A program made the position numbers and the translations under genes. The notes under the pieces were generated by a model. That model was not told where the DNA came from. It ran no database searches and saw nothing but the letters and a program-made list of their open reading frames with translations. From a virus (taxonomy: Duplodnaviria > Heunggongvirae > Uroviricota > Caudoviricetes), in IMG/VR virus record IMGVR_UViG_2778261696_000009, positions 1 through 20,973 of that record: DNA of 20,973 nucleotides. The stretch is one strand, 5' to 3'. Positions 554 through 20,973 of this stretch are shown here, in pieces; the first letter of the stretch is position 1; every line of letters starts with the position of its first letter.

Positions 554-612
554 ATGAATATTAAAAGTTAAGACATTGATTTATAATAGATTATTATATT
601 CAAAAAATATAA

Positions 613-633
613 CTATACACATATCTATACACA
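613..633. promoter_or_regulatory. Tandem CTATACACA(T) motifs, candidate integrase arm-type binding sites (left end)
   Basis: CTATACACAT at 613-622 and CTATACACA at 625-633. The same 10-mer occurs at 8532-8541 and inverted at 8488-8497, next to the integrase start. Four copies sit inside the element ends, between the candidate att core and crr or int. Confidence 0.35.
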
Positions 634-670
634 CTGCGCGCATCGCTTGTTTTTTACACAATTAAAAGTA

Positions 671-977
671 AGAAAAAAGTTTTTTTTCGAAAGAACTGTT
701 CACACTGTTCACCTTTCTTTTGTCTCCTTTTATTTCAGAGTGATAGGTGGTGAATAATGGGTGAAGGGTGAACATTCGATTCTTCACCTCCGGCATTCTG
801 CCGGTGTGACTCATACCGGTGATTAATCCCCCATACTGAAATCACACAGGGAGAAAAAAAAGTTTTTTTTGATTTGATTGTTCACACTGTTCACCTTTCG
901 TTTTTCTCTTTTAATTTCAGTGTGATAACGGGTGAATACACGGTGAAGGGTGAACAGTGGATTGTTCACCTTCGGGG
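671..977. repeat. crr-like cis replication region: two ~125-bp direct repeats (671-800 and 851-977), each with TGTTCACC-type iterons in both orientations
   Basis: Both units start with an A-run/T-run (AGAAAAAAGTTTTTTTT) and share near-identical sequence. Exact TGTTCACC octamers at 706-713, 888-895 and 963-970; reverse complement GGTGAACA at 767-774 and 949-956; near-iterons TGTTCACA at 697-704 and 879-886. Located directly downstream of the alpha gene, as recalled for P4 crr. Confidence 0.75.
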
Positions 978-986
978 AATTCAGGG

Positions 987-1013
987 ATAAAAAAAGACCG
1001 GCAGATGCCGGTC
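987..1013 (-). terminator. Rho-independent terminator downstream of alpha
   Basis: On the minus strand: GC-rich hairpin GACCGGC-(4-nt loop)-GCCGGTC at 996-1013, immediately followed by a run of 7 T (plus-strand A-run 989-995). It sits 17 nt after the alpha stop. Confidence 0.6.
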
Positions 1014-1029
1014 AGATGAGTCATGATGG

Positions 1030-3363
1030 TCAGGTTGTCGCAGGGTCGTCACATTTTGGCAGCCAGTCGCCGTAGCTTTCCTCTTTCAGCGTCAGGTTGG
1101 TCTGTATCCCCTGTTTGGTATGGCGCTTCTCGTAATTCAGTCCGTATTCCTTCAGCATCACCGGCAGCCCCAGCCCGAACATTTTCAGACTGAGTACATT
1201 CCGGTAGCCGTTTGCCTCCATGTAGGCCAGATAGGCGTGATAGAGGTATTTACGGTAATTGCGCGGGATGATACTGGCGTTCCCCATATACATGCCGCTG
1301 GTCTGCGGCAGGGTTTCCAGATAGCCGATAAAATCAAACGTCGGGTCGGCATCCCGTTTGATGTTCAGCGCCTCGTATGAGTTCTGCTGGGACTGAAGCA
1401 GTGACCGGGCGAGCATCGGGTCGCTGAACTTCTGCATCAGGTGACGCACGATGACCGCCAGCTCGCGGGTGATTTTGTCCTTAAGCTGCGGGTCGCGCTC
1501 CTGCGGGGCTATCTGTTCCGGGAAGTGAATAATCACCCGCCGGCGTGACACGCCGCCGCTGCGGTCGGTGAAGCGCATCGGGTTATTGTTCACGGCCAGA
1601 ATTACCGCCGGGATATGCGTGGAGTATGCATCCCGGTATTTCGGGTCAACGGACACCGCATCGCCGCCGGTGATGGCCTTGAGTCCGGCACCGTCGCCGC
1701 TCCATTTTTCCTGGTCCGGCAGGCGTATCAGTGAGAAGCCAGTTAACGCGGCACGTTCACGCGGGGATTCCAGCGTCTCGATGGTGGCCGACGTGGCGTT
1801 ATCCTCCCCGGCCAGCAGGGTGGCTATTTCGGCCATGATACTTTTGCCGCTGCCGCCGGGACCGGTCACCTCCAGAAAGAGCTGCCAGTCGTAGCGGTTT
1901 GCCAGCACCATAAACAGTGCGGCCAGAATCACGTCGCGTTTTTCCGCACGACCACCGGCGGCACGGTCAAGCCAGCGCCAGAACGCGGGGGCGTGGGTTT
2001 CCAGCGTTTCCCCTTCCACCGGCGGGGTGAAATCCACATCGCACAGGGTGCGCATCCAGTGTGACGGACTGTGCGGGTGGAACGTGCCGCTCTGCGTGTC
2101 GAGCACGCCGTTACGAAAGCCAATCAGGCGGCGGGAGGGGGCTTCCTGCTGCGGAATAATCAGCTTCAGGGTGTCCACCACGGAGGCCACCTTCCCGGAG
2201 GAGAACGGCGCGCGCAGACGCTGAAACAGCCCGGCCACATCCCGGGCAAAGTCCTGTGGCGGCAGCACCTTCCAGACACCATTTTCATAGCGGGACAGAA
2301 GCTGGCCGTTGGCATCGACCGCGAGCGCCTCGCCGTAATGCTCATAGATACGCATGGCCTTTTCGCTGGTACTCATGGCGGAAAACTCCGCTTCGCTCAT
2401 GGTGTCGAACGGGCTTTCAGCCGGTGGCCGGATGGCATCATAAATGGCCTTACGGGTGGCTTCCCCGCCGTACTGCGTGAAGGCATCATTCCAGTCACCG
2501 AAGACCGGCGGCAGGGCAACAACACCTTCACACGCATCTGCGGCTGCGGCGGCTTTTGTCTGGCCGTCACCGCTGAGGTCACGGTCAGCAGCAAGGACAA
2601 TCTGACAGGCCGGATGCTTCTGCCGGGCAAGGCTGGCCAGAGAAAGGAGGTTCACGGAAGAAAGCGCCACCATCACCGTTTCACCGGTCAGGTGATGCAC
2701 GGTAAGTGCGGTCGCGTATCCCTCCGCTATCCACAGACGTTTTCCGGCCTGATTCTGTCCTTCAAGGGTGTGACAGGTGCCCCTGACCTGTCCGCCTTTC
2801 AGGGTGCGCTTACGGCCGTCAGCGCTGATTAACTGAAGGTTAACCAGTTCGCCGCTGTCGTCATACAGTGGCACCACAAGGTCACCGGCGCACCAGCTCA
2901 CGCCACCGGCTCTGTGTGTGCCGGTCAGCATCCGGCATTCCCGGCCGGGAAAACCCTTGCGGGTCAGGTAGGCGTTACCGGTTCCGGGACGGGTTTTCGC
3001 CATCAGGGTTTGTGCCAGTGCGGCGGCGTTCTTCCGGGCAGCGTCTGTTTCAGCACCGGCGGCGGCCGTCACTGCCGGGTCAGCCGGGGGCAGACAGCCG
3101 GTCACGGCAGCCACCTTTGCGGCCGCGTCGGACGGGGAAACACCAAACACCTTTTCAACCAGTTTCAGGCCGTCACCGGCACCACACTGATTGCAGTACC
3201 AGGTGCCGCGCCCCTCCCTGTCATCAAAACGGAAGCGGTCACTCCCGCCACAGACCGGACAGGGCTGATGACGGTTTTTCAGCACCTGAATCCCCAGCGC
3301 CGGGAGAATACGCGGCCAGTGGCCGAGCGCATGGCTGACGGTGGCGGTTACGTTCATTTTCAT
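1030..3363 (-). CDS. alpha: P4-type alpha protein: bifunctional DNA primase / helicase / origin-binding replication protein
   Basis: 777-aa ORF, the length recalled for P4 alpha. N-terminal zinc-binding motif (CPVCGG...CNQCG), Walker A P-loop (GPGGSGKS) mid-protein, and a C-terminal domain upstream of the TGTTCACC iterons it would bind. AAGGAG RBS 8 nt upstream of the ATG. GC-rich. Confidence 0.9.
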   Translation of the reverse strand: MKMNVTATVSHALGHWPRILPALGIQVLKNRHQPCPVCGGSDRFRFDDREGRGTWYCNQCGAGDGLKLVEKVFGVSPSDAAAKVAAVTGCLPPADPAVTAAAGAETDAARKNAAALAQTLMAKTRPGTGNAYLTRKGFPGRECRMLTGTHRAGGVSWCAGDLVVPLYDDSGELVNLQLISADGRKRTLKGGQVRGTCHTLEGQNQAGKRLWIAEGYATALTVHHLTGETVMVALSSVNLLSLASLARQKHPACQIVLAADRDLSGDGQTKAAAAADACEGVVALPPVFGDWNDAFTQYGGEATRKAIYDAIRPPAESPFDTMSEAEFSAMSTSEKAMRIYEHYGEALAVDANGQLLSRYENGVWKVLPPQDFARDVAGLFQRLRAPFSSGKVASVVDTLKLIIPQQEAPSRRLIGFRNGVLDTQSGTFHPHSPSHWMRTLCDVDFTPPVEGETLETHAPAFWRWLDRAAGGRAEKRDVILAALFMVLANRYDWQLFLEVTGPGGSGKSIMAEIATLLAGEDNATSATIETLESPRERAALTGFSLIRLPDQEKWSGDGAGLKAITGGDAVSVDPKYRDAYSTHIPAVILAVNNNPMRFTDRSGGVSRRRVIIHFPEQIAPQERDPQLKDKITRELAVIVRHLMQKFSDPMLARSLLQSQQNSYEALNIKRDADPTFDFIGYLETLPQTSGMYMGNASIIPRNYRKYLYHAYLAYMEANGYRNVLSLKMFGLGLPVMLKEYGLNYEKRHTKQGIQTNLTLKEESYGDWLPKCDDPATT

Positions 3364-3377
3364 GGTGTTGTTCTCCT

Positions 3378-3626
3378 TCAGTGCAGTACCGGCGCTTTTA
3401 TGTGACGGGCACAGAGTTCATCCATCACAACCAGCCCGAGAAAGGACAGCGACGGCGCGGCCTTCAGGGGGCCGGATTCCATTAAATCTTCCAGCAGGGC
3501 ACAGGCTATCTGACGCCCTTTTTCCTCACCGTGCTGGCGCAGATAAAAGCCCTCCAGCTCAGCGGCGATGGCCGCCTCCAGTGACTCAAGGGTGAGATGC
3601 GGGTAGCGGTGCTGACGTTCGCACAC
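3378..3626 (-). CDS. Small protein in the epsilon position, directly upstream of and co-oriented with alpha; identity unverified
   Basis: Stop lies 14 nt upstream of the alpha ATG and overlaps the alpha RBS, suggesting co-transcription. The start is uncertain: GTG at 3626 has no obvious RBS and internal ATGs exist. Called by position only. Confidence 0.35.
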
Positions 3627-3716
3627 GGTCAGCCAGGCACAGGCGACAGCGCGACGGTAAAGGGCAGCGCGTAAGACGGGCGGTACCGCGATTCACTGAC
3701 GTCAGCCTCCGGCAGT

Positions 3717-3998
3717 ATGAAACGCCCGAAAAGAATGCTTGTTACCGGATATTGTTGTCGGAGATGTAAAGGCCTTGCACTGTCAAGAACATCGCGGCGT
3801 CTGTCTCAGGAAGTCACCGAGCGTTTTTATGTGTGCACGGATCCGGGCTGTGGTCTGGTGTTTAAAACGCTTCAGACCATCAACCGCTTCATTGTCCGCC
3901 CGGTCACGCCGGACGAACTGGCAGAAAGCCTGCATGAAAAACAGGAACTGCCGCCAGTACGCTTAAAAACACAATCATATTCGCTGCGTCTGGAATGA
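3717..3998 (+). CDS. delta: Ogr/Delta-family zinc-finger late-gene transcriptional activator (single-domain)
   Basis: Cys4 pattern CRRC...(x22)...CTDPGC, with SRTSR and RFIVRP segments that align by eye with phage P2 Ogr (C..C...ARTSR...KERY.QC....C...RYIVKP). 93 aa as called; an alternative start is the ATG at 3735. Confidence 0.8.
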   Translation: MKRPKRMLVTGYCCRRCKGLALSRTSRRLSQEVTERFYVCTDPGCGLVFKTLQTINRFIVRPVTPDELAESLHEKQELPPVRLKTQSYSLRLE

Positions 3999-4071
3999 GG
4001 GCTGCCGGTTAACACCGGCCGTCGCCGCACACCGTATTTTTATTCTTCAGCATGATGAGAAAGAGATAACG

Positions 4072-4644
4072 ATGGAAAGCACAGCCTTACAGCAGGCCTT
4101 TGACACCTGTCAGAATAACAAAGCAGCATGGCTGCAACGCAAAAATGAGCTGGCAGCGGCCGAACAGGAATATCTGCGGCTTCTGTCAGGAGAAGGCAGA
4201 AACGTCAGCCGCCTGGACGAATTACGCAATATTATCGAAGTCAGAAAATGGCAGGTGAATCAGGCCGCCGGTCGTTATATTCGTTCGCATGAAGCCGTTC
4301 AGCACATCAGCATCCGCGACCGGCTGAATGATTTTATGCAGCAGCACGGCACAGCACTGGCGGCGGCACTGGCACCGGAGCTGATGGGCTACAGTGAGCT
4401 GACGGCCATTGCCCGAAACTGTGCCATACAGCGTGCCACAGATGCCCTGCGTGAAGCCCTTCTGTCCTGGCTTGCGAAGGGGGAAAAAATTAATTATTCC
4501 GCACAGGATAGCGACATTTTAACGACCATCGGATTCAGGCCTGACGCGGCTTCGGTGGATGACAGCCGTGAAAAATTCACCCCTGCGCAGAACATGATTT
4601 TTTCGCGTAAAAGTGCGCAACTGGCATCACGTCAGTCTGTGTAA
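4072..4644 (+). CDS. psu: Psu (polarity suppression protein; capsid decoration / Rho antagonist) of P4-like satellites
   Basis: 190-aa ORF, the length recalled for P4 Psu. Directly downstream of the delta-like gene as in the P4 sid-delta-psu operon (no sid here). GC-rich, helical-looking sequence. Confidence 0.8.
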   Translation: MESTALQQAFDTCQNNKAAWLQRKNELAAAEQEYLRLLSGEGRNVSRLDELRNIIEVRKWQVNQAAGRYIRSHEAVQHISIRDRLNDFMQQHGTALAAALAPELMGYSELTAIARNCAIQRATDALREALLSWLAKGEKINYSAQDSDILTTIGFRPDAASVDDSREKFTPAQNMIFSRKSAQLASRQSV

Positions 4645-4680
4645 AATTCCCCGAAAATCCGCCCGTTTTTACTGAAAAAA

Positions 4681-4710
4681 GCCATGCATCGATAAGGTGC
4701 ATGGCTTTGC
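4681..4710 (+). terminator. Possible terminator hairpin after psu
   Basis: Inverted repeat GCCATGCA-(9-nt loop)-TGCATGGC at 4681-4705, followed by TTT. Modest intrinsic-terminator features. Confidence 0.35.
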
Positions 4711-4735
4711 ATGCGTTTCCCTGCCTCATTTTCTG

Positions 4736-4763
4736 CAGACCGCGCCATTCCCGGCGCGGTCTG
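4736..4763. other. Perfect 11-bp GC-rich inverted repeat (CAGACCGCGCC / GGCGCGGTCTG) with a 6-nt loop
   Basis: Seen directly at 4736-4746 and 4753-4763. Not followed by a T-run, so not a classical terminator. Lies in the psu-cos interval, so it could be a packaging- or protein-binding element. Confidence 0.4.
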
Positions 4764-4808
4764 AGCGTGTCAGTGCAACTGCATTAAAACCGCCCCGCAA
4801 AGCGGGCG

Positions 4809-4827
4809 GGCGTGGCGGGGGGAGCAT
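4809..4827. other. Degenerate cos-like site (P2/P4 cohesive-end-like)
   Basis: GGCGTGGCGGGGGGAGCAT matches the recalled P2/P4 cohesive end GGCGAGGCGGGGAAAGCAC at most positions. It sits where cos lies in P4 (after psu) and coincides with the sharp GC-rich to AT-rich transition. Confidence 0.4.
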
Positions 4828-4902
4828 TGCGCGCTAAGGCTGATATTATAATTTTCTTTAATTCTATTTGGTATTTTGGCTTTATTCGTCAGAAGGAACG
4901 TT

Positions 4903-4937
4903 TAGAAATAGACCACTACAATGGATTGTAGCGGTCT
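4903..4937 (-). terminator. Terminator-like hairpin downstream of the int-RT-partner gene string
   Basis: 12-bp stem AGACCACTACAA / TTGTAGCGGTCT (one mismatch) with loop TGGA at 4910-4937. On the minus strand it is followed by ATTTCTAAA and begins about 10 nt after the partner-gene stop. Confidence 0.45.
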
Positions 4938-4946
4938 GCATGATAT

Positions 4947-5687
4947 CTAGCGTTGCATTTCAGTTACTATGAAATTTTCTTCTGTAATAGAATTCATTAT
5001 CTCAAAGTACAATTCTTCAGGTTGAATAAACGCCAACTCTTTGCAAAGGTTGACAATGGTATCACTATAAGTGATACCCATCCGAGGATTGAAAAGCTCA
5101 AATCTCTTGATGTTTCTTTTGTTTTTTGAGTAAAAGTTTAAAGTGAAATATATTAGCACCTGTCTAAGATCGTAAACACTAAACTTCCTATCTCCTGATT
5201 TTATTTCCACAAGAACATTTGAATAATAAATATCGCCATATGAATTATTTATTACTCCGCATCCATCGAATTGTGGAGACACTTCAATTTGGTTTTCCAT
5301 TCCATATCGAGACAAAATGTTTCTTGCTATTTCCCTTATGGCATTGTACTCAACCATGCTTAAGGGTAGCTTGAAGTTAGAACCGTAAGCGAACCGCTGT
5401 AGATATTCTTTTGTTTTTTCAAAAACAACCTGAAAATCAGCATTATGGAAGATATCATGTGCTGAAAGAATATTTCTGTCTAACGAATCATTCTGTATTG
5501 CCCTATATAAATTAAATGCGCACTCATTAACAAAGACGTTATTTGACCTATTAGCGCAGTCATCTAGAGGAGGATAAACGTCCTCGATGAGACTGCCGTT
5601 AATGATGCGTATGAAATTATTAGCATTTGGAAGCAATTGATTCCAAAATGAAGTGAATTTTCGAGAAAACGTTAATTCAGATATCAT
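4947..5687 (-). CDS. Partner protein of the reverse transcriptase (246 aa, unknown family; possible nuclease-like effector)
   Basis: AT-rich ORF whose ATG overlaps the RT stop as ATGA (5684-5687). No family recognised by eye. Contains GDIYYSNVLVEIKSG, i.e. D-x9-E-x-K in a hydrophobic beta-like context, weakly reminiscent of a PD-(D/E)xK nuclease core. Confidence 0.7.
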   Translation of the reverse strand: MISELTFSRKFTSFWNQLLPNANNFIRIINGSLIEDVYPPLDDCANRSNNVFVNECAFNLYRAIQNDSLDRNILSAHDIFHNADFQVVFEKTKEYLQRFAYGSNFKLPLSMVEYNAIREIARNILSRYGMENQIEVSPQFDGCGVINNSYGDIYYSNVLVEIKSGDRKFSVYDLRQVLIYFTLNFYSKNKRNIKRFELFNPRMGITYSDTIVNLCKELAFIQPEELYFEIMNSITEENFIVTEMQR

Positions 5688-7312
5688 AGCGCATCCTCAA
5701 GATTTCTTGCGGTATGCCTTTTACTTGCCCAATCCCTGTAAATCACCTCTACAAAGTTGAATGTTTTCTTATTATGCTCTCTCCAGTGCCGTCCTTCATC
5801 ACCTAAGATGTAACTGGAAACGATCAATAGTCTTCTCTGCAACGGATGCATTGCAGAGAAATTTTTTTTGATATCAGAAAGCCATGCGTAAGAATTAATT
5901 TTTGCCATTGACTGTGTAACTATGTTCTTGACTAAGATGCTTTCTGGATTGTTATTGTATATTTCACTAAGGATTAGGGTGGATTTTTCTGAATTTTCTT
6001 TTGAGAGCATTCGGGCTACATAGGCTAAGTTGAGCTCAGTACTCAAAATATATGAATCTTGTTTAATTAGTGCAGTTATTTTATCAAGAATAATATCTTT
6101 GGTTTCTGTGCTTAATTTTTGCCAGTTGGAGTTAGCTACTTGAATTATAGTTGTAAATATTGGATATAACTCATGCAAGTTATTAAACATTACTTTGAAA
6201 GCACTACTTATTATTTCATCTGATGTTGCTGAGAATGCCTTTATCAAATGCTTGCTAAAAGATTGGTTAATTTTTGATTTTTGTAACTCACTACTCAGCA
6301 TAGCTAACAAGTCAAAATCTTTTAAAGATTCCTTTATCTCTTCATATTCCTCTATCGCATTTGCTGAGTAAGGATCGAATCTTATAGGAAGACTCATAAA
6401 TTTAGCCTTCATAGGAGATTCTTCATCTTCATCATTACCATGCAACTTAGCTTTAGTTACTGAAAGGAACTCTTCTTTAGTAACAATATTGGTTTTTTGT
6501 TTCTGTAAAGTTAGCCCTTCATTTTCCATCAGTTTTTTACTAAGCAAAGTTAAAATCTTATGAGCATCCTCTCTAGAGTTACAAAAAATAACAAAGTCGT
6601 CGACATAACGCTTATAGTTGATTCTATTCATAGACAATAATTTATCAATAGAATCTAGAGCTAGTTCTGCTAATATTCTAGAGGCAGGACATCCAACTGG
6701 TACTCCATATGATTTTGTTTCACTAAATGTCTGTAGTAATTTCTTGATTTTCCCAGAGTAATCTTTATTGGGGTCGACTCTATCTAACGCATTTTCTAAA
6801 CGGTGGTGATAAATACGCGGATAGAAATCTGCTATATCGCATGTAAGTACATACTTTATTTCATCGTTAGAACATTCAGAGATACTGTCTTCTTGATATT
6901 TTCTCCAAGAGATCTCTTTATCAAAAAGAGAACCATCAGCAAGGTTTGGTTTAAAGCGATATGAATAAACCTGCGTTTTAGTAGATCTATTCCTTTCAAT
7001 ATCATCAGCGATTTTTAAAACTAACCCAAGAAAAAAAGCATTCCAGAATGGATCAATTTGGGTCGCCCACCTGTAACCATAATAACCAATACTTGAAAAG
7101 CTATTAATTATGTTTGGTGGAATCTCGATCCTTTTATTTTCAAAGTCATTAAATGTTTGCATTAATGCAGTTTTTACTTTCTCCTTATCATCTTCAAATA
7201 ACCGACTTTCAAATGGGTAAGGGAAAATATCTGTATCGCCGTGCTTTATAATATTTTCCAATGCAAGCTCAAAGCAATTTTCTAGTTTACTACTATCAAA
7301 CTCGTTACTCAT
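5684..7312 (-). CDS. Reverse transcriptase (Abi/DRT-like defence-associated RT: N-terminal RT domain plus ~250-aa C-terminal helical domain)
   Basis: RT palm motifs in canonical order: LTCDIADFYPRI (motif A-like), GVPVGCPASRILAELAL (motif B-like), YKRYVDDFVIF (motif C, YxDD box). The C-terminal half has no RT motifs and contains GRHWREH (R-x4-H). The ATG overlaps the integrase stop (AATGAGTAA) with AAGGAG 7 nt upstream. AT-rich. Confidence 0.85.
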   Translation of the reverse strand: MSNEFDSSKLENCFELALENIIKHGDTDIFPYPFESRLFEDDKEKVKTALMQTFNDFENKRIEIPPNIINSFSSIGYYGYRWATQIDPFWNAFFLGLVLKIADDIERNRSTKTQVYSYRFKPNLADGSLFDKEISWRKYQEDSISECSNDEIKYVLTCDIADFYPRIYHHRLENALDRVDPNKDYSGKIKKLLQTFSETKSYGVPVGCPASRILAELALDSIDKLLSMNRINYKRYVDDFVIFCNSREDAHKILTLLSKKLMENEGLTLQKQKTNIVTKEEFLSVTKAKLHGNDEDEESPMKAKFMSLPIRFDPYSANAIEEYEEIKESLKDFDLLAMLSSELQKSKINQSFSKHLIKAFSATSDEIISSAFKVMFNNLHELYPIFTTIIQVANSNWQKLSTETKDIILDKITALIKQDSYILSTELNLAYVARMLSKENSEKSTLILSEIYNNNPESILVKNIVTQSMAKINSYAWLSDIKKNFSAMHPLQRRLLIVSSYILGDEGRHWREHNKKTFNFVEVIYRDWASKRHTARNLEDAL

Positions 7313-8489
7313 TCACATTCTCCTTAATAAAAATATAATCTGAATACCACTGCATCATATCACGGCGTTTATCAATATATTGAGCATGATTATACGTACC
7401 TCTAATATTATTCTTATCTATATGAGCAAGCTGTATTTCTATCCAAGCCGAATCATATCCTTTTTCGTGGAGGATAGTAGATAAGGAATGTCGAAATCCA
7501 TGACCAGTAAGTTTTCCACCATAACCAATACGCTTGATAACTTGGTTAATACTCGCCTCACTCATAGGCTTGTTCGGATCGTTCCGCCCCGGAAAAACAT
7601 AACTATACTTCCCTGTCATCATCTTGAGTTCATTTAGCAAATCTAACGCTTGAGTCGACAAAGGCACAAGGTGTGATCTGCGCATTTTCATCCTTTCAGC
7701 AGGAATTTCCCAAATAGCGTTATCTAAATCAAATTCTGACCATAATGCCGCACGTAATTCGATGGTTCTAACACCTGTAATCATGAGCAATTTCGTGGCA
7801 ATCAGGACAAGCCGACTTCCGGTATATCCGTTTAAGGCGCGAAGAAAATCAGGTATCTCATTAGCCTTTAAGAACGGGAAATGATTTGATTGGTGTACAT
7901 TGAGGGCGCTTGAAAGATCCGCAGCAGGGTTAAACTCAGCCCTTCCAGTAGCAATGGCATAGCGGAAAACTTCTGAGCATCGCTGCCGAACTTTGCGCAT
8001 TTTTTCTAATGCACCGCGCTTTTCGATTTTACGCAGCACATTAAGCAGTTCTAGCGGTTTAATCTCTCCCACTGGCCTTGTTCCCACATAAGGAAAAATG
8101 TCGTTCTTAAACGCTTCCATGATGTCTGATGCATATCCCGCCGACCATTTGGTAGACTTCTGTTGATGCCACTCTCTGGCTATCTTTTCGAAGGCGTTCT
8201 CTGACTCTGTTTGCAGAGCCAGCTTTTGCTCTTTTCGAACCTCACTAGGGTTCTTTCCTTCTGCCACAAGTTTTCGAGCTTCATCACGACGGGAACGAGC
8301 ATCAGCAAGAGTGATCGTTGGGTAAACACCAAGCGAGATCATTTTGGGTTTACCGGCATAGCGATAACGAAATCGCCAGCTTTTACTTCCATTTGGCTCT
8401 ACAAGTAAAGACAACCCTTGCCCATCCCCAAGTGTATAGGCTTTAGCTTCAGGTTTAGCACGGCGAATCTGCATATCATTTAGGGGCAT
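7305..8489 (-). CDS. int: P4-type tyrosine integrase (site-specific recombinase)
   Basis: 394 aa. N-terminal arm-binding-like region, then a tyrosine-recombinase catalytic region with R (LMITGVRTIELRA), HGFRHSLST (H-x-x-R) and a C-terminal RGTYNHAQY tyrosine region. Located at the element edge next to the candidate attR. Confidence 0.9.
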   Translation of the reverse strand: MPLNDMQIRRAKPEAKAYTLGDGQGLSLLVEPNGSKSWRFRYRYAGKPKMISLGVYPTITLADARSRRDEARKLVAEGKNPSEVRKEQKLALQTESENAFEKIAREWHQQKSTKWSAGYASDIMEAFKNDIFPYVGTRPVGEIKPLELLNVLRKIEKRGALEKMRKVRQRCSEVFRYAIATGRAEFNPAADLSSALNVHQSNHFPFLKANEIPDFLRALNGYTGSRLVLIATKLLMITGVRTIELRAALWSEFDLDNAIWEIPAERMKMRRSHLVPLSTQALDLLNELKMMTGKYSYVFPGRNDPNKPMSEASINQVIKRIGYGGKLTGHGFRHSLSTILHEKGYDSAWIEIQLAHIDKNNIRGTYNHAQYIDKRRDMMQWYSDYIFIKENVNE

Positions 8490-8652: not shown

Positions 8653-8670
8653 ATGGTGCCGATAATAGGA
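8653..8670. repeat. Candidate attR core: right copy of the 17/18-nt direct repeat
   Basis: ATGGTGCCGATAATAGGA at 8653-8670 versus ATGGTGCGATAATAGGA at 537-553. It lies ~165 bp beyond the int start. Confidence 0.4.
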
Positions 8671-8727: not shown

Positions 8728-10092
8728 TTGAATCTTATAGAAAAATCATCATTTTCTATGCGTCACAATCAATTTTCACATTACAAACGCTCCGACACTT
8801 TAGCCGGAGATTTTATGAGATACAAGCCTAACCAATACTTAATCTGTGATTCTTACGGTAACTACTATTTAAGGATCACGCTGCCTGTGTATATGCAGCC
8901 CTTTTTTGAAGGAAAAAGGACGTTTGTCAGAAGTCTACACACAAGTAATCTTCGTGTTGCACGTAGAAAGCGTGATCAGATTGCAGATGAATACCATTGC
9001 TTACGGGAGAGTGTTGCCCCTGTAAACAGCACAATAGAAAACACGCTGGAACTGTTACGCAGTAAGGCTAAATACGCCAAAACAGCTACCAGAGTGCAAG
9101 ATACAGCGTCTTCGTGTCCGTCATTGCTTAAAATTCTTGAAATCTACCTGACAATTAACAGCACGAAGAAGAAGCCAGCCACTTTAGCTAAGGCAAGAAA
9201 AGCGGTAGAGATGTTTCTCTCCTACCGTAAAAAGCCTGATATTGCATTGCAAGATGTAAGCCGCACCACTGTTACAGGCTGGATTGAACACATGCAAAAA
9301 ACTCTTTCACAACAATCAATTGCAAATTATATCAGTCCAATGGCCCAGCTATGGGAATTAGCTTCATCACGTTACCACGATGCGCCAGAAAGGGCGCTCT
9401 CCCCCTGGCGAGGGCATAGGCTTGATGTGGCACAAAGTAGAGAGAGCTACGAGGCATTTTCTAACAAAGAGCTATTGCAGGTGTTGCAAGTATTTTCCGG
9501 TAATTCAGCAGAAAACAAAGAAATGACGGCTTTGTGTCTTATCGGTTTATATACAGGTATGCGGATCAATGAGATAGCAAGTCTCACAATAGACGATGTG
9601 AAAGAGATCGAAGGTGTGCTGTGTTTTGAAATCACACAGGGAAAGACGAAAGCTGCGGCACGTGTTGTGCCTGTGCATAACCTTATCACTCCGTTGGTGT
9701 TGTCGCTGCGTGAAAAGCCTCACAATGGCTTTTTGTTCTATCACGCCAGCATTACAGAACGTGCTGACGGTAAACGCTCTACGTGGCATACACAACGATT
9801 TACAAGAGCTAAACGAAAGGCTTTAGGGGAAAAGGGAACAGAAAGGAAAGTGTTTCATTCTCTGAGACACGGAGTAGCACAGCTTCTTGATCGAAATCAA
9901 ATTCCAGAAGACAGGATCGCCCTTCTCCTGGGCCATACACGCGGCAATACAGAAACATTCCGCACATATAGCAAAAATGCAGCTTCTCCAATAGAGCTTA
10001 AAAAATATATTGAGCTTTTACGCTACCCTGAAATAGAGAAAGGCTTATCAATCAATAAAAAATCAAATTTAAGGCGTAAAACAACGCTATAG
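8728..10092 (+). CDS. Second tyrosine recombinase / phage-type integrase (likely true start at ATG 8815)
   Basis: C-terminal catalytic signatures: YTGMRINEIASL (R), HSLRHGVAQLL (H-x-x-R), LLGHTRG and FRTYSK (Tyr). The in-frame ATG at 8815 has a GGAG RBS 5 nt upstream. Divergent from the P4-type int. Confidence 0.8.
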   Translation: MNLIEKSSFSMRHNQFSHYKRSDTLAGDFMRYKPNQYLICDSYGNYYLRITLPVYMQPFFEGKRTFVRSLHTSNLRVARRKRDQIADEYHCLRESVAPVNSTIENTLELLRSKAKYAKTATRVQDTASSCPSLLKILEIYLTINSTKKKPATLAKARKAVEMFLSYRKKPDIALQDVSRTTVTGWIEHMQKTLSQQSIANYISPMAQLWELASSRYHDAPERALSPWRGHRLDVAQSRESYEAFSNKELLQVLQVFSGNSAENKEMTALCLIGLYTGMRINEIASLTIDDVKEIEGVLCFEITQGKTKAAARVVPVHNLITPLVLSLREKPHNGFLFYHASITERADGKRSTWHTQRFTRAKRKALGEKGTERKVFHSLRHGVAQLLDRNQIPEDRIALLLGHTRGNTETFRTYSKNAASPIELKKYIELLRYPEIEKGLSINKKSNLRRKTTL

Positions 10093-19696: not shown

Positions 19697-20254
19697 ATGA
19701 AAATGGCTAATATTGGATACATTAGGGTATCGACTGTGCAACAAAACACAGACCGTCAATTAGCTGGAGTAACTCTTGATAAAGTCTTTGAAGATAAAGC
19801 GTCAGGCAAGAACACTCAGCGCCCACAGTTTGAGGCAATGATGAACTATGTGCGGGAGGGTGACGTGTTACACGTCCATAGTATTGATCGCCTTTGTCGT
19901 AATACAGCCGACCTTCTGGCAACGGTTGAGCAATTAACAGAGCGCGGCGTGTCTGTGCATTTCCATAAAGAAGACTTTAAGACAGGGAAGAACTCTCCCG
20001 CAGGGAATATGATGCTCACAGTGCTTGCAGCAGTGGCACAAATGGAACGTGAAATGATGCTTGAGCGGCAGCGTGAGGGGATCGCCGCAGCTAAGGCCGC
20101 TGGACGTATAGCAAAACGTGGTAATGGAAAAGCAATTGATCGAGCGGGAATTGTTGCCGCTCTCGCGAATGGTGGATCAATTCGGAGCGTAGCAAAAGAT
20201 TTCAGTGTCAGCACACAGACGGTGCAACGTATCAAGAAAGAGCAGGAAGCGTAA
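19697..20254 (+). CDS. Serine recombinase (resolvase / DNA invertase family)
   Basis: N-terminal IGYIRVSTVQQNTDRQ contains the catalytic Ser in the Y-x-R-V-S-T context typical of resolvase/invertases. C-terminal GGSIRSVAKDFSVSTQTVQRIKK is an HTH. ~185 aa. The more likely start is the second ATG at 19703 (AGGA RBS). Confidence 0.85.
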   Translation: MKMANIGYIRVSTVQQNTDRQLAGVTLDKVFEDKASGKNTQRPQFEAMMNYVREGDVLHVHSIDRLCRNTADLLATVEQLTERGVSVHFHKEDFKTGKNSPAGNMMLTVLAAVAQMEREMMLERQREGIAAAKAAGRIAKRGNGKAIDRAGIVAALANGGSIRSVAKDFSVSTQTVQRIKKEQEA

Positions 20255-20820: not shown

Positions 20821-20973
20821 TCAATCCTTAAGCCATTTCAACTCACTAAGGAGTTTTCTTTCTTCGTTCTCTCGCTGTTTACGCTCTAGCCAGGCTTTTC
20901 CTTCTGGCGTAGACAGGAACTTACGAGCGTGAATCTTGCGGTTATTACGTTTGATAGCTGCAATGTTTTTCAT
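20821..20973 (-). CDS. Small basic protein (at least 50 aa); ATG at the window edge, may extend beyond the window
   Basis: Minus-strand ORF: MKNIAAIKRNNRKIHARKFLSTPEGKAWLERKQRENEERKLLSELKWLKD, stop at 20821-20823. Upstream context is not visible. Confidence 0.3.
   Translation of the reverse strand: MKNIAAIKRNNRKIHARKFLSTPEGKAWLERKQRENEERKLLSELKWLKD

Follow-up and report, generated by a model that had tools for sequence, protein, structure and literature searches.

A pair of direct repeats at positions 674–975 of the DNA analysed here is, judged by its sequence, the authentic crr (cis replication region) of a P4-type satellite, and as such an already known feature. The window, meaning the whole stretch of 20,973 nucleotides, contains this crr directly behind an intact alpha gene and lacks the partner cluster ori1. 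The reading that we favor, at a probability of roughly 0.88, is that crr was orphaned by a deletion that removed ori1 and is now functionally silent in a defective satellite.

The crr consists of two 120-bp direct repeats on the plus strand, repeat 1 at 674–793 and repeat 2 at 856–975, and a 62-bp spacer at 794–855. With their starts placed at 673/674 and 855/856, the repeats measure 120–121 nt each, are 81% identical and lie 182 bp apart from start to start. The preliminary description had recognized the repeats and given them a length of about 125 bp at a spacing of 180 bp; both sizes were slightly off, the actual values being 120 nt and 182 bp, and its span of 661–1013 also takes in the alpha terminator (989–1013) and the A/T tract with which repeat 1 begins. 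Each repeat carries a set of short iterons. In repeat 1, TGTTCACA (697–704) and TGTTCACC (706–713) lie on the plus strand and correspond to P4 4314–4321 and 4323–4330, annotated as 'ori type 1 repeat'; TATTCACC (749–756) and TGTTCACC (767–774) lie on the minus strand and correspond to P4 4366–4373 and 4384–4391; and TCTTCACC (781–788) lies again on the plus strand, at the equivalent of P4 4398–4405. Repeat 2 has TGTTCACA (879–886) and TGTTCACC (888–895) on the plus strand, TATTCACC (931–938) and TGTTCACC (949–956) on the minus strand, and TGTTCACC (963–970) on the plus strand. Searching for the core hexamer TTCACC adds one degenerate iteron CCTTCACC per repeat, on the minus strand at 760–767 and 942–949, without counterpart in the P4 annotation. 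This sixth, degenerate iteron abuts an exact GGTGAACA and is kept across the family alignment, while going unannotated in the P4 GenBank records. A/T tracts accompany the iterons, with A6GT8 at 673–687 opening repeat 1 and A8GT8 at 854–870.

The clustering of the octamer is far from random. Exact TGTTCACC occurs five times in the window, always within 706–970, three times on the plus strand and twice on the minus strand, which bears out the earlier observation of octamers in both orientations; dinucleotide-preserving shuffles contain 0.51 ± 0.78 copies, and none of 100 shuffles reached five. When one mismatch is allowed, the window has 28 sites, ten of them packed into 274 bp (697–970; Poisson P ~1e-11), and the remaining 18, all outside the repeat block, stay at background level (z = 1.2 versus shuffles). 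The concern that the octamers might simply lie at background frequency throughout the window can thus be set aside, and the shuffles together with the clustering statistics rule out a chance or low-complexity origin of the block. A coding or RNA explanation was also considered and rejected, as the block contains only mechanical open reading frames of at most 50 aa and matches no Rfam family.

Comparison with phage records identifies the block directly. By blastn, window 674–1023 aligns with P4 (X51522) 4291–4638 at 94.9% identity over 350 nt (E = 2e-153), and the X51522 annotation at the match reads 'crr (cis required region for replication)', with two 120-bp direct repeats, ten 'ori type 1 repeats' and talpha. 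Within this match, the P4 crr proper occupies X51522 4291–4590, the counterpart of window 674–975. The P4 record of the original depositors, X05623, is annotated alike (crr 2733–3032). All ten annotated iterons are identical between the window and P4 in sequence, order and strand. Relative to P4, repeat 1 has three substitutions and repeat 2 a single one; the spacer is the most diverged part of crr, with six substitutions and a 2-bp insertion of two extra A's that lengthens it from 60 to 62 bp; the repeats of P4 are spaced 180 bp. The features that define a crr are present: paired repeats of about 120 bp with a gap of about 60 bp, five type-1 iterons in each unit, pointing in both directions, homology with the P4 crr, a position directly 3' of alpha past its terminator (55 nt separate the end of repeat 2 from the stop codon of alpha) and, in cis, a cognate alpha with a C-terminal origin-binding domain. 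The partner ori1 cluster in cis is the one component absent, having been deleted, and its absence is a defect of the element and no ground to doubt the homology of crr. What had been called crr-like and downstream of alpha is accordingly the orthologue of the P4 crr.

The role of these sequences in P4 is well established. P4 replication starts at ori1, an array of six iterons beside an AT-rich stretch, located several kb from crr. The C-terminal domain of alpha binds the type-1 iterons in both ori1 and crr, and alpha is then loaded to serve as both helicase and primase. The crr, annotated in P4 since the 1980s, is needed in cis and tolerates changes in distance and orientation; its cooperation with ori1 is thought to work by alpha-mediated looping, whereupon ori1 opens. 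The literature on P4 replication includes Flensburg and Calendar (1987), Ziegelin et al. (1993, 1995), Yeo et al. (2002) and Tocchetti et al. (1998, 1999).

In the window, a pattern search with the exact octamer and its one-mismatch variants finds the crr cluster only, in agreement with the preliminary description: outside the block, no 300-bp interval contains more than two one-mismatch octamers, and a scan with TTCACC likewise reveals no second iteron cluster. To judge what this means, we turned to relatives. Among 80 loci with alpha relatives in other Enterobacterales, 32 were usable (alpha identity of 79% or more, with sufficient flanking sequence to either side). An ori1-like cluster of 5–7 sites in about 100 bp lies 1.6–2.5 kb upstream of alpha in 31 of these 32 loci. 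Behind alpha, crr is found in 23 of the 31 ori1-bearing loci, beginning 39–69 nt past the stop codon with the exception of L010 (732 nt). A crr without an upstream cluster was seen at one locus only, and its alpha is truncated. Since the two-cluster layout is the norm among relatives, the one-cluster state of the window is to be regarded as a defect.

The relatives also indicate which part of crr matters. When 87 distinct crr units are aligned, agreement with the window reaches a frequency of 0.88 in iteron columns compared to 0.57 elsewhere (Mann-Whitney p = 5e-8, a value that overstates independence because the aligned sequences are related), supporting the notion that the iterons are the functional part of crr and under selection. 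The duplication itself is not conserved, as relatives with one unit and with two units are equally common (18 vs 18, roughly half each). In a survey of 5,426 E. coli genomes, crr was found in 1,077 (1,317 places) and ori1 in 1,005 (1,204 places); throughout the matches listed, RefSeq assigns to these places the feature 'none' or 'hypothetical protein', leaving crr and ori1 unannotated.

Several P4-type elements of other genera have a single crr unit after alpha and a second iteron cluster 1.3–2.1 kb further on, with genes between the two (L029:5760-7254, L028:5525-7817, L031:12385-14515, L034:12382-14300 and L056:3462-5481). In L029 the intervening genes encode a DUF1883 protein (Pfam E = 2.5e-30) and a small membrane protein, and in L031 a protein of 401 aa that matches PD-T7-1 weakly (PADLOC E = 5e-4). 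The region between the crr repeats of such elements looks like a second hotspot for cargo insertion.

The absence of a second cluster in the window is explained by a 3.2-kb deletion that removed ori1. Alignment to P4 yields two collinear blocks, window 674–3685 matching P4 4291–7291 (97.8%) and window 3684–4808 matching P4 10500–11624 (99.0%). The blocks meet at a junction at 3684–3685, where P4 7291 is joined to P4 10500 through a 2-bp TA microhomology. The lost interval, P4 7292–10499, comprises the first four codons of ORF106, ORF151, epsilon, cI, ORF88, ori1, sid and the first 62 codons of delta. The P4 rep_origin (9086–9809), with its six exact TGTTCACC iterons (9310–9413), lies inside it.

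E. coli AH25 (NZ_CP055256.1 3936158-3951170) has an undeleted sister of the element at the same chromosomal position, thrW, flanked by paoD/yagP' on one side and a second integrase on the other. It is 99.8–99.9% identical on both sides of the junction, and the RefSeq protein accessions of both its DRT8 proteins and its integrase are identical to those of the window element. At this locus (L083), a segment of 3,207 bp (4794–8000) is absent from the window and has six exact iterons at 6811–6914. Of the three fates that the preliminary description had considered for the primary origin, namely that it was missing, diverged or located within a gene, the first holds, with ori1 in the 3.2 kb kept by AH25, and the other two fail; an origin that diverged instead of being lost is ruled out by the almost identical, undeleted sister. 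The junction is present in 30 of the 5,426 complete E. coli genomes, which excludes an assembly artefact, while the two halves are apart in 1,060 genomes. Copies that bear the deletion are 99.9–100% identical. The deletion therefore appears real but rare, and the near-identity of the copies that carry it makes it look recent. The psu gene of AH25 is split by an IS21-family (ISEc12) insertion (L083:8389-11548), and that of the window is intact; with psu disrupted in AH25 and the 3.2-kb deletion in the window element, both known versions of the thrW-site satellite are damaged, in different ways.

The same comparison bears on the idea that the repeat block is itself the origin, or that a diverged origin resides in another part of the element or within a gene. 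The AT-rich tracts A6GT8 and A8GT8 next to the iterons could be taken as an origin-like arrangement. The element is, however, collinear with P4 and AH25 at 98–99.9% identity apart from one clean deletion, so that no diverged part remains as a candidate for a new ori; the homologous ori1 lies inside the deleted segment, and no other iteron cluster exists in the element. We consider this idea barely credible. With ori1 gone, the canonical P4 replicon cannot fire, and we infer that canonical ori1 replication has been lost in the window element.

What the deletion left untouched is the protein that recognizes crr. The alpha gene (1030–3363, minus strand) encodes an intact 777-aa primase-helicase/origin-binding protein with the Pfam domains Zn_Ribbon_Prim, Toprim, D5_N and Pox_D5. 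It shares 98.4% nucleotide identity with P4 alpha, with 12 amino acid differences and at most four differing bases in every 36-nt stretch. Residues 671–770 are 100% identical to PDB 1KA8, the sole solved part of the P4 protein, which we take to be the origin-binding winged-helix domain of P4 alpha. The gene is followed by a rho-independent terminator, GACCGGCATCTGCCGGTC followed by T7 (989–1013, minus strand), found in a terminator scan and corresponding to P4 4604–4628, 'talpha'. Because both the iterons and the DNA-binding domain are unchanged, the predicted binding of alpha to the window crr should probably remain possible, if any alpha is made.

Whether alpha is made is a different matter. 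ORF106 (DUF5375; 3378–3685, minus strand) lacks its first four codons, start codon and ribosome-binding site, the position of the latter being taken from X05623, and the native promoters of alpha went with the deleted operon upstream of it. A consensus promoter scan upstream of alpha found four promoter-like sites compared to 2.6 ± 1.9 expected; a new alpha promoter acquired after the deletion was considered on this basis and rejected, such sites being no commoner than chance. On the minus strand, terminator-like sites at 4809–4790 and 4135–4123 lie between the integrase/DRT8 genes and alpha. Nor is there a closely related second alpha in EC12, the strain whose chromosome carries this locus: a 5.2-kb probe matches one place only, so that no such alpha is available in trans. 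From these features we infer that alpha is not expressed in the remnant.

These findings weigh on the possibility that the alpha-crr module is still a working replicon. Tocchetti and colleagues reportedly described, in 1998 and 1999, a second P4 replicon, oriII, composed of crr and an ori2 inside alpha; ori2 is said to be a 36-bp site within alpha that alpha does not bind. A module of this type could amplify after excision without ori1, and the retained crr and full-length alpha are exactly the components attributed to oriII. At 98.4% identity, with no more than four differences in any 36-nt stretch, alpha may have preserved ori2, and both the DNA-binding domain and the iterons are those of P4. 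Excision is conceivable, as integrase and att sites are present. Against such activity stand the loss of the genes upstream of ORF106 with the native alpha promoters, an ORF106 devoid of start codon and ribosome-binding site, promoter-like sites at chance level, terminator-like sites that insulate alpha from the int/DRT8 unit, and the lack of a closely related alpha in trans in EC12. Because alpha has lost its promoters, residual oriII-type activity is unlikely.

A further possibility is that the orphan array is retained as an anti-satellite determinant, acting alongside DRT8 by titration or handcuffing of incoming alpha. The array offers ten to twelve predicted alpha sites, and P4-type elements that share these iterons are widespread, to judge by the 1,077 of 5,426 E. 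coli genomes with crr; as a matter of general knowledge, distal iteron clusters are determinants of copy number and incompatibility in iteron plasmids. Yet there is no sign of selection, the deletion lineage being rare (30 genomes) and 99.9–100% identical; the P4 crr is a positive cis element, a single chromosomal copy would titrate little alpha, and the proposal is purely speculative, which makes it very unlikely in our estimation. The full-length alpha and the unmutated crr could be held against the view of an inert relic, but deleted and undeleted copies are 99.8–99.9% identical and have had too little time for decay, so that intact sequences are uninformative on selection. Taking the two possibilities together, that the alpha-crr pair is alive either as an ori1-independent oriII-type replicon or as an anti-satellite iteron decoy appears quite unlikely. 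If it were alive, the DRT8 island could amplify, or exclude P4-type satellites, without hijacking or immunity genes.

The orphaned crr resides in an island of about 8.1 kb. The window and the thrW/CP4-6 locus of the E. coli EC12 chromosome are 100% identical, and the element is bracketed by imperfect copies of the thrW 3' end, GGTGC(C)GATAATAGGA: the left att copy GGTGCGATAATAGGA at 539–553 and the right att copy GGTGCCGATAATAGGA at 8655–8670. A tandem 12-bp repeat, ATAACTATACAC/ATATCTATACAC (609–632, plus strand), lies between the att core and crr, and probably represents integrase arm sites; P4 has tandem 12-bp attP arm repeats in an equivalent place. From left to right the element comprises att, arm repeats, crr, alpha, the ORF106 fragment, the junction, a delta remnant, psu, the cos end, DRT8, the integrase and att. 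The delta remnant (3684–3998, plus strand; a RefSeq pseudogene) is the 3' part of the gene and retains the second Ogr-like zinc-finger half. Within it lies a 93-aa open reading frame with its own ATG (3717–3998; Pfam Ogr_Delta E = 3.5e-11), single-domain and without the Psid promoter. The psu gene (4072–4644, plus strand; Pfam Psu E = 1e-88) is intact and differs from P4 Psu at one of the aligned positions. Homology to P4 stops at the right genome end, the cos end (4790–4808), where P4 11624 aligns to window 4808. Beyond it, on the minus strand, lies a DRT type 8 defence pair (4947–7312; PADLOC E = 5.5e-69 and 4.9e-166), composed of a 246-aa RT-associated PD-(D/E)XK protein and the 542-aa Drt8 reverse transcriptase. 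The pair sits between the cos end and the integrase of the P4 remnant, in a cargo hotspot that has been described for P4-like satellites (PMC9122126). The integrase (7305–8489, minus strand) is a tyrosine recombinase of thrW type and not of the P4 leuX type, with the Pfam domains Arm-DNA-bind_3, Phage_int_M and Phage_integrase. As P4 homology begins at the left edge of crr, the att/int module differs in type from the leuX-type module of P4.

The core set of P4-like satellites consists of int, psu, delta, sid, alpA, epsilon and alpha (Moura de Sousa and Rocha, PMC8628076). Of these seven components, the window element has int, psu and alpha; delta is truncated, and sid, epsilon and an ORF88/alpA-type regulator are absent. 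By descent, the element is a degraded P4-type satellite that forms a chromosomal island of about 8.1 kb with DRT8.

A second, unrelated integrative element stands in tandem at thrW and extends from 8728 to the window end at 20973; it encodes a tyrosine recombinase of 454 aa with DUF6538, a serine recombinase (19697–20254) and a Dit-like baseplate protein, along with a protein of 613 aa and some ten small ones that have no Pfam match. No tRNA genes were found in the window; thrW itself lies about 600 bp past the window end in EC12. At the left edge, a 136-aa open reading frame at 1–411 is a chimaera and not a real gene: it begins with the 3' end of paoD, which in EC12 extends to window position 22, and continues with part of the yagP pseudogene, the C-terminal LysR substrate-binding domain.

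The history of the locus can be sketched as follows. A P4-type satellite with a crr would have integrated at the thrW (CP4-6) site of E. coli. A single 3.2-kb deletion would then have taken out ORF151, epsilon, cI, ORF88, ori1, sid and the front of delta, along with any upstream sequence able to drive alpha transcription, leaving crr as the recently orphaned half of a two-part origin. In the remnant, crr would probably have kept its ability to bind alpha, if alpha were made, and would be unable to sustain replication in the usual manner of P4. What persists would be a defective satellite of about 8.1 kb, a chromosomal island that carries DRT8.

As a discovery the crr matters little, being nearly identical to the long-annotated crr of P4. 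It goes unmentioned in the papers on P4-like satellites PMC8628076 and PMC9122126. Because annotation pipelines mark neither crr nor ori1, these repeats will keep being rediscovered. Scoring the presence of both iteron clusters provides a cheap test of the replication capacity of a P4-type satellite, which is missing from protein-based satellite detection. The window locus and its AH25 sister, furthermore, constitute a natural before/after pair for residual alpha-crr activity in replication or interference.

The crr of P4 is the closest known system. It resembles the window crr in its two 120-bp repeats, the five annotated iterons in each and the position after talpha, and the repeats are 97.5–99% identical between the two; the spacer is 60 bp in P4 and 62 bp, and more diverged, in the window. 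The left flank in P4 is the leuX-type attP, whereas that of the window crr is a thrW-type att/arm region, and the P4 crr has its partner ori1 on the same element, which the window element lacks. The P4 ori1 uses the same octamer as crr, in the form of six exact iterons closely and regularly spaced in about 100 bp; it differs from crr in having no 120-bp duplication and in lying between ORF88 and sid, where the counterpart DNA has been deleted in the window. The AH25 sister shares with the window element the chromosomal site, crr, alpha, the DRT8 cargo and the integrase, and differs in retaining the 3,207 bp that contain ori1, sid and the immunity region. More distant parallels are the auxiliary iteron clusters of iteron plasmids (R6K, P1 incA, F incC), distal initiator-binding repeats that loop to the origin-bound initiator. 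Like crr, these clusters are initiator-binding repeats located away from the initiation site. Their effect is mostly negative, through handcuffing and copy control, in contrast to the positive requirement for crr in cis in P4; they bear no sequence relationship to crr, and the initiator in the P4 system is a primase-helicase fusion.
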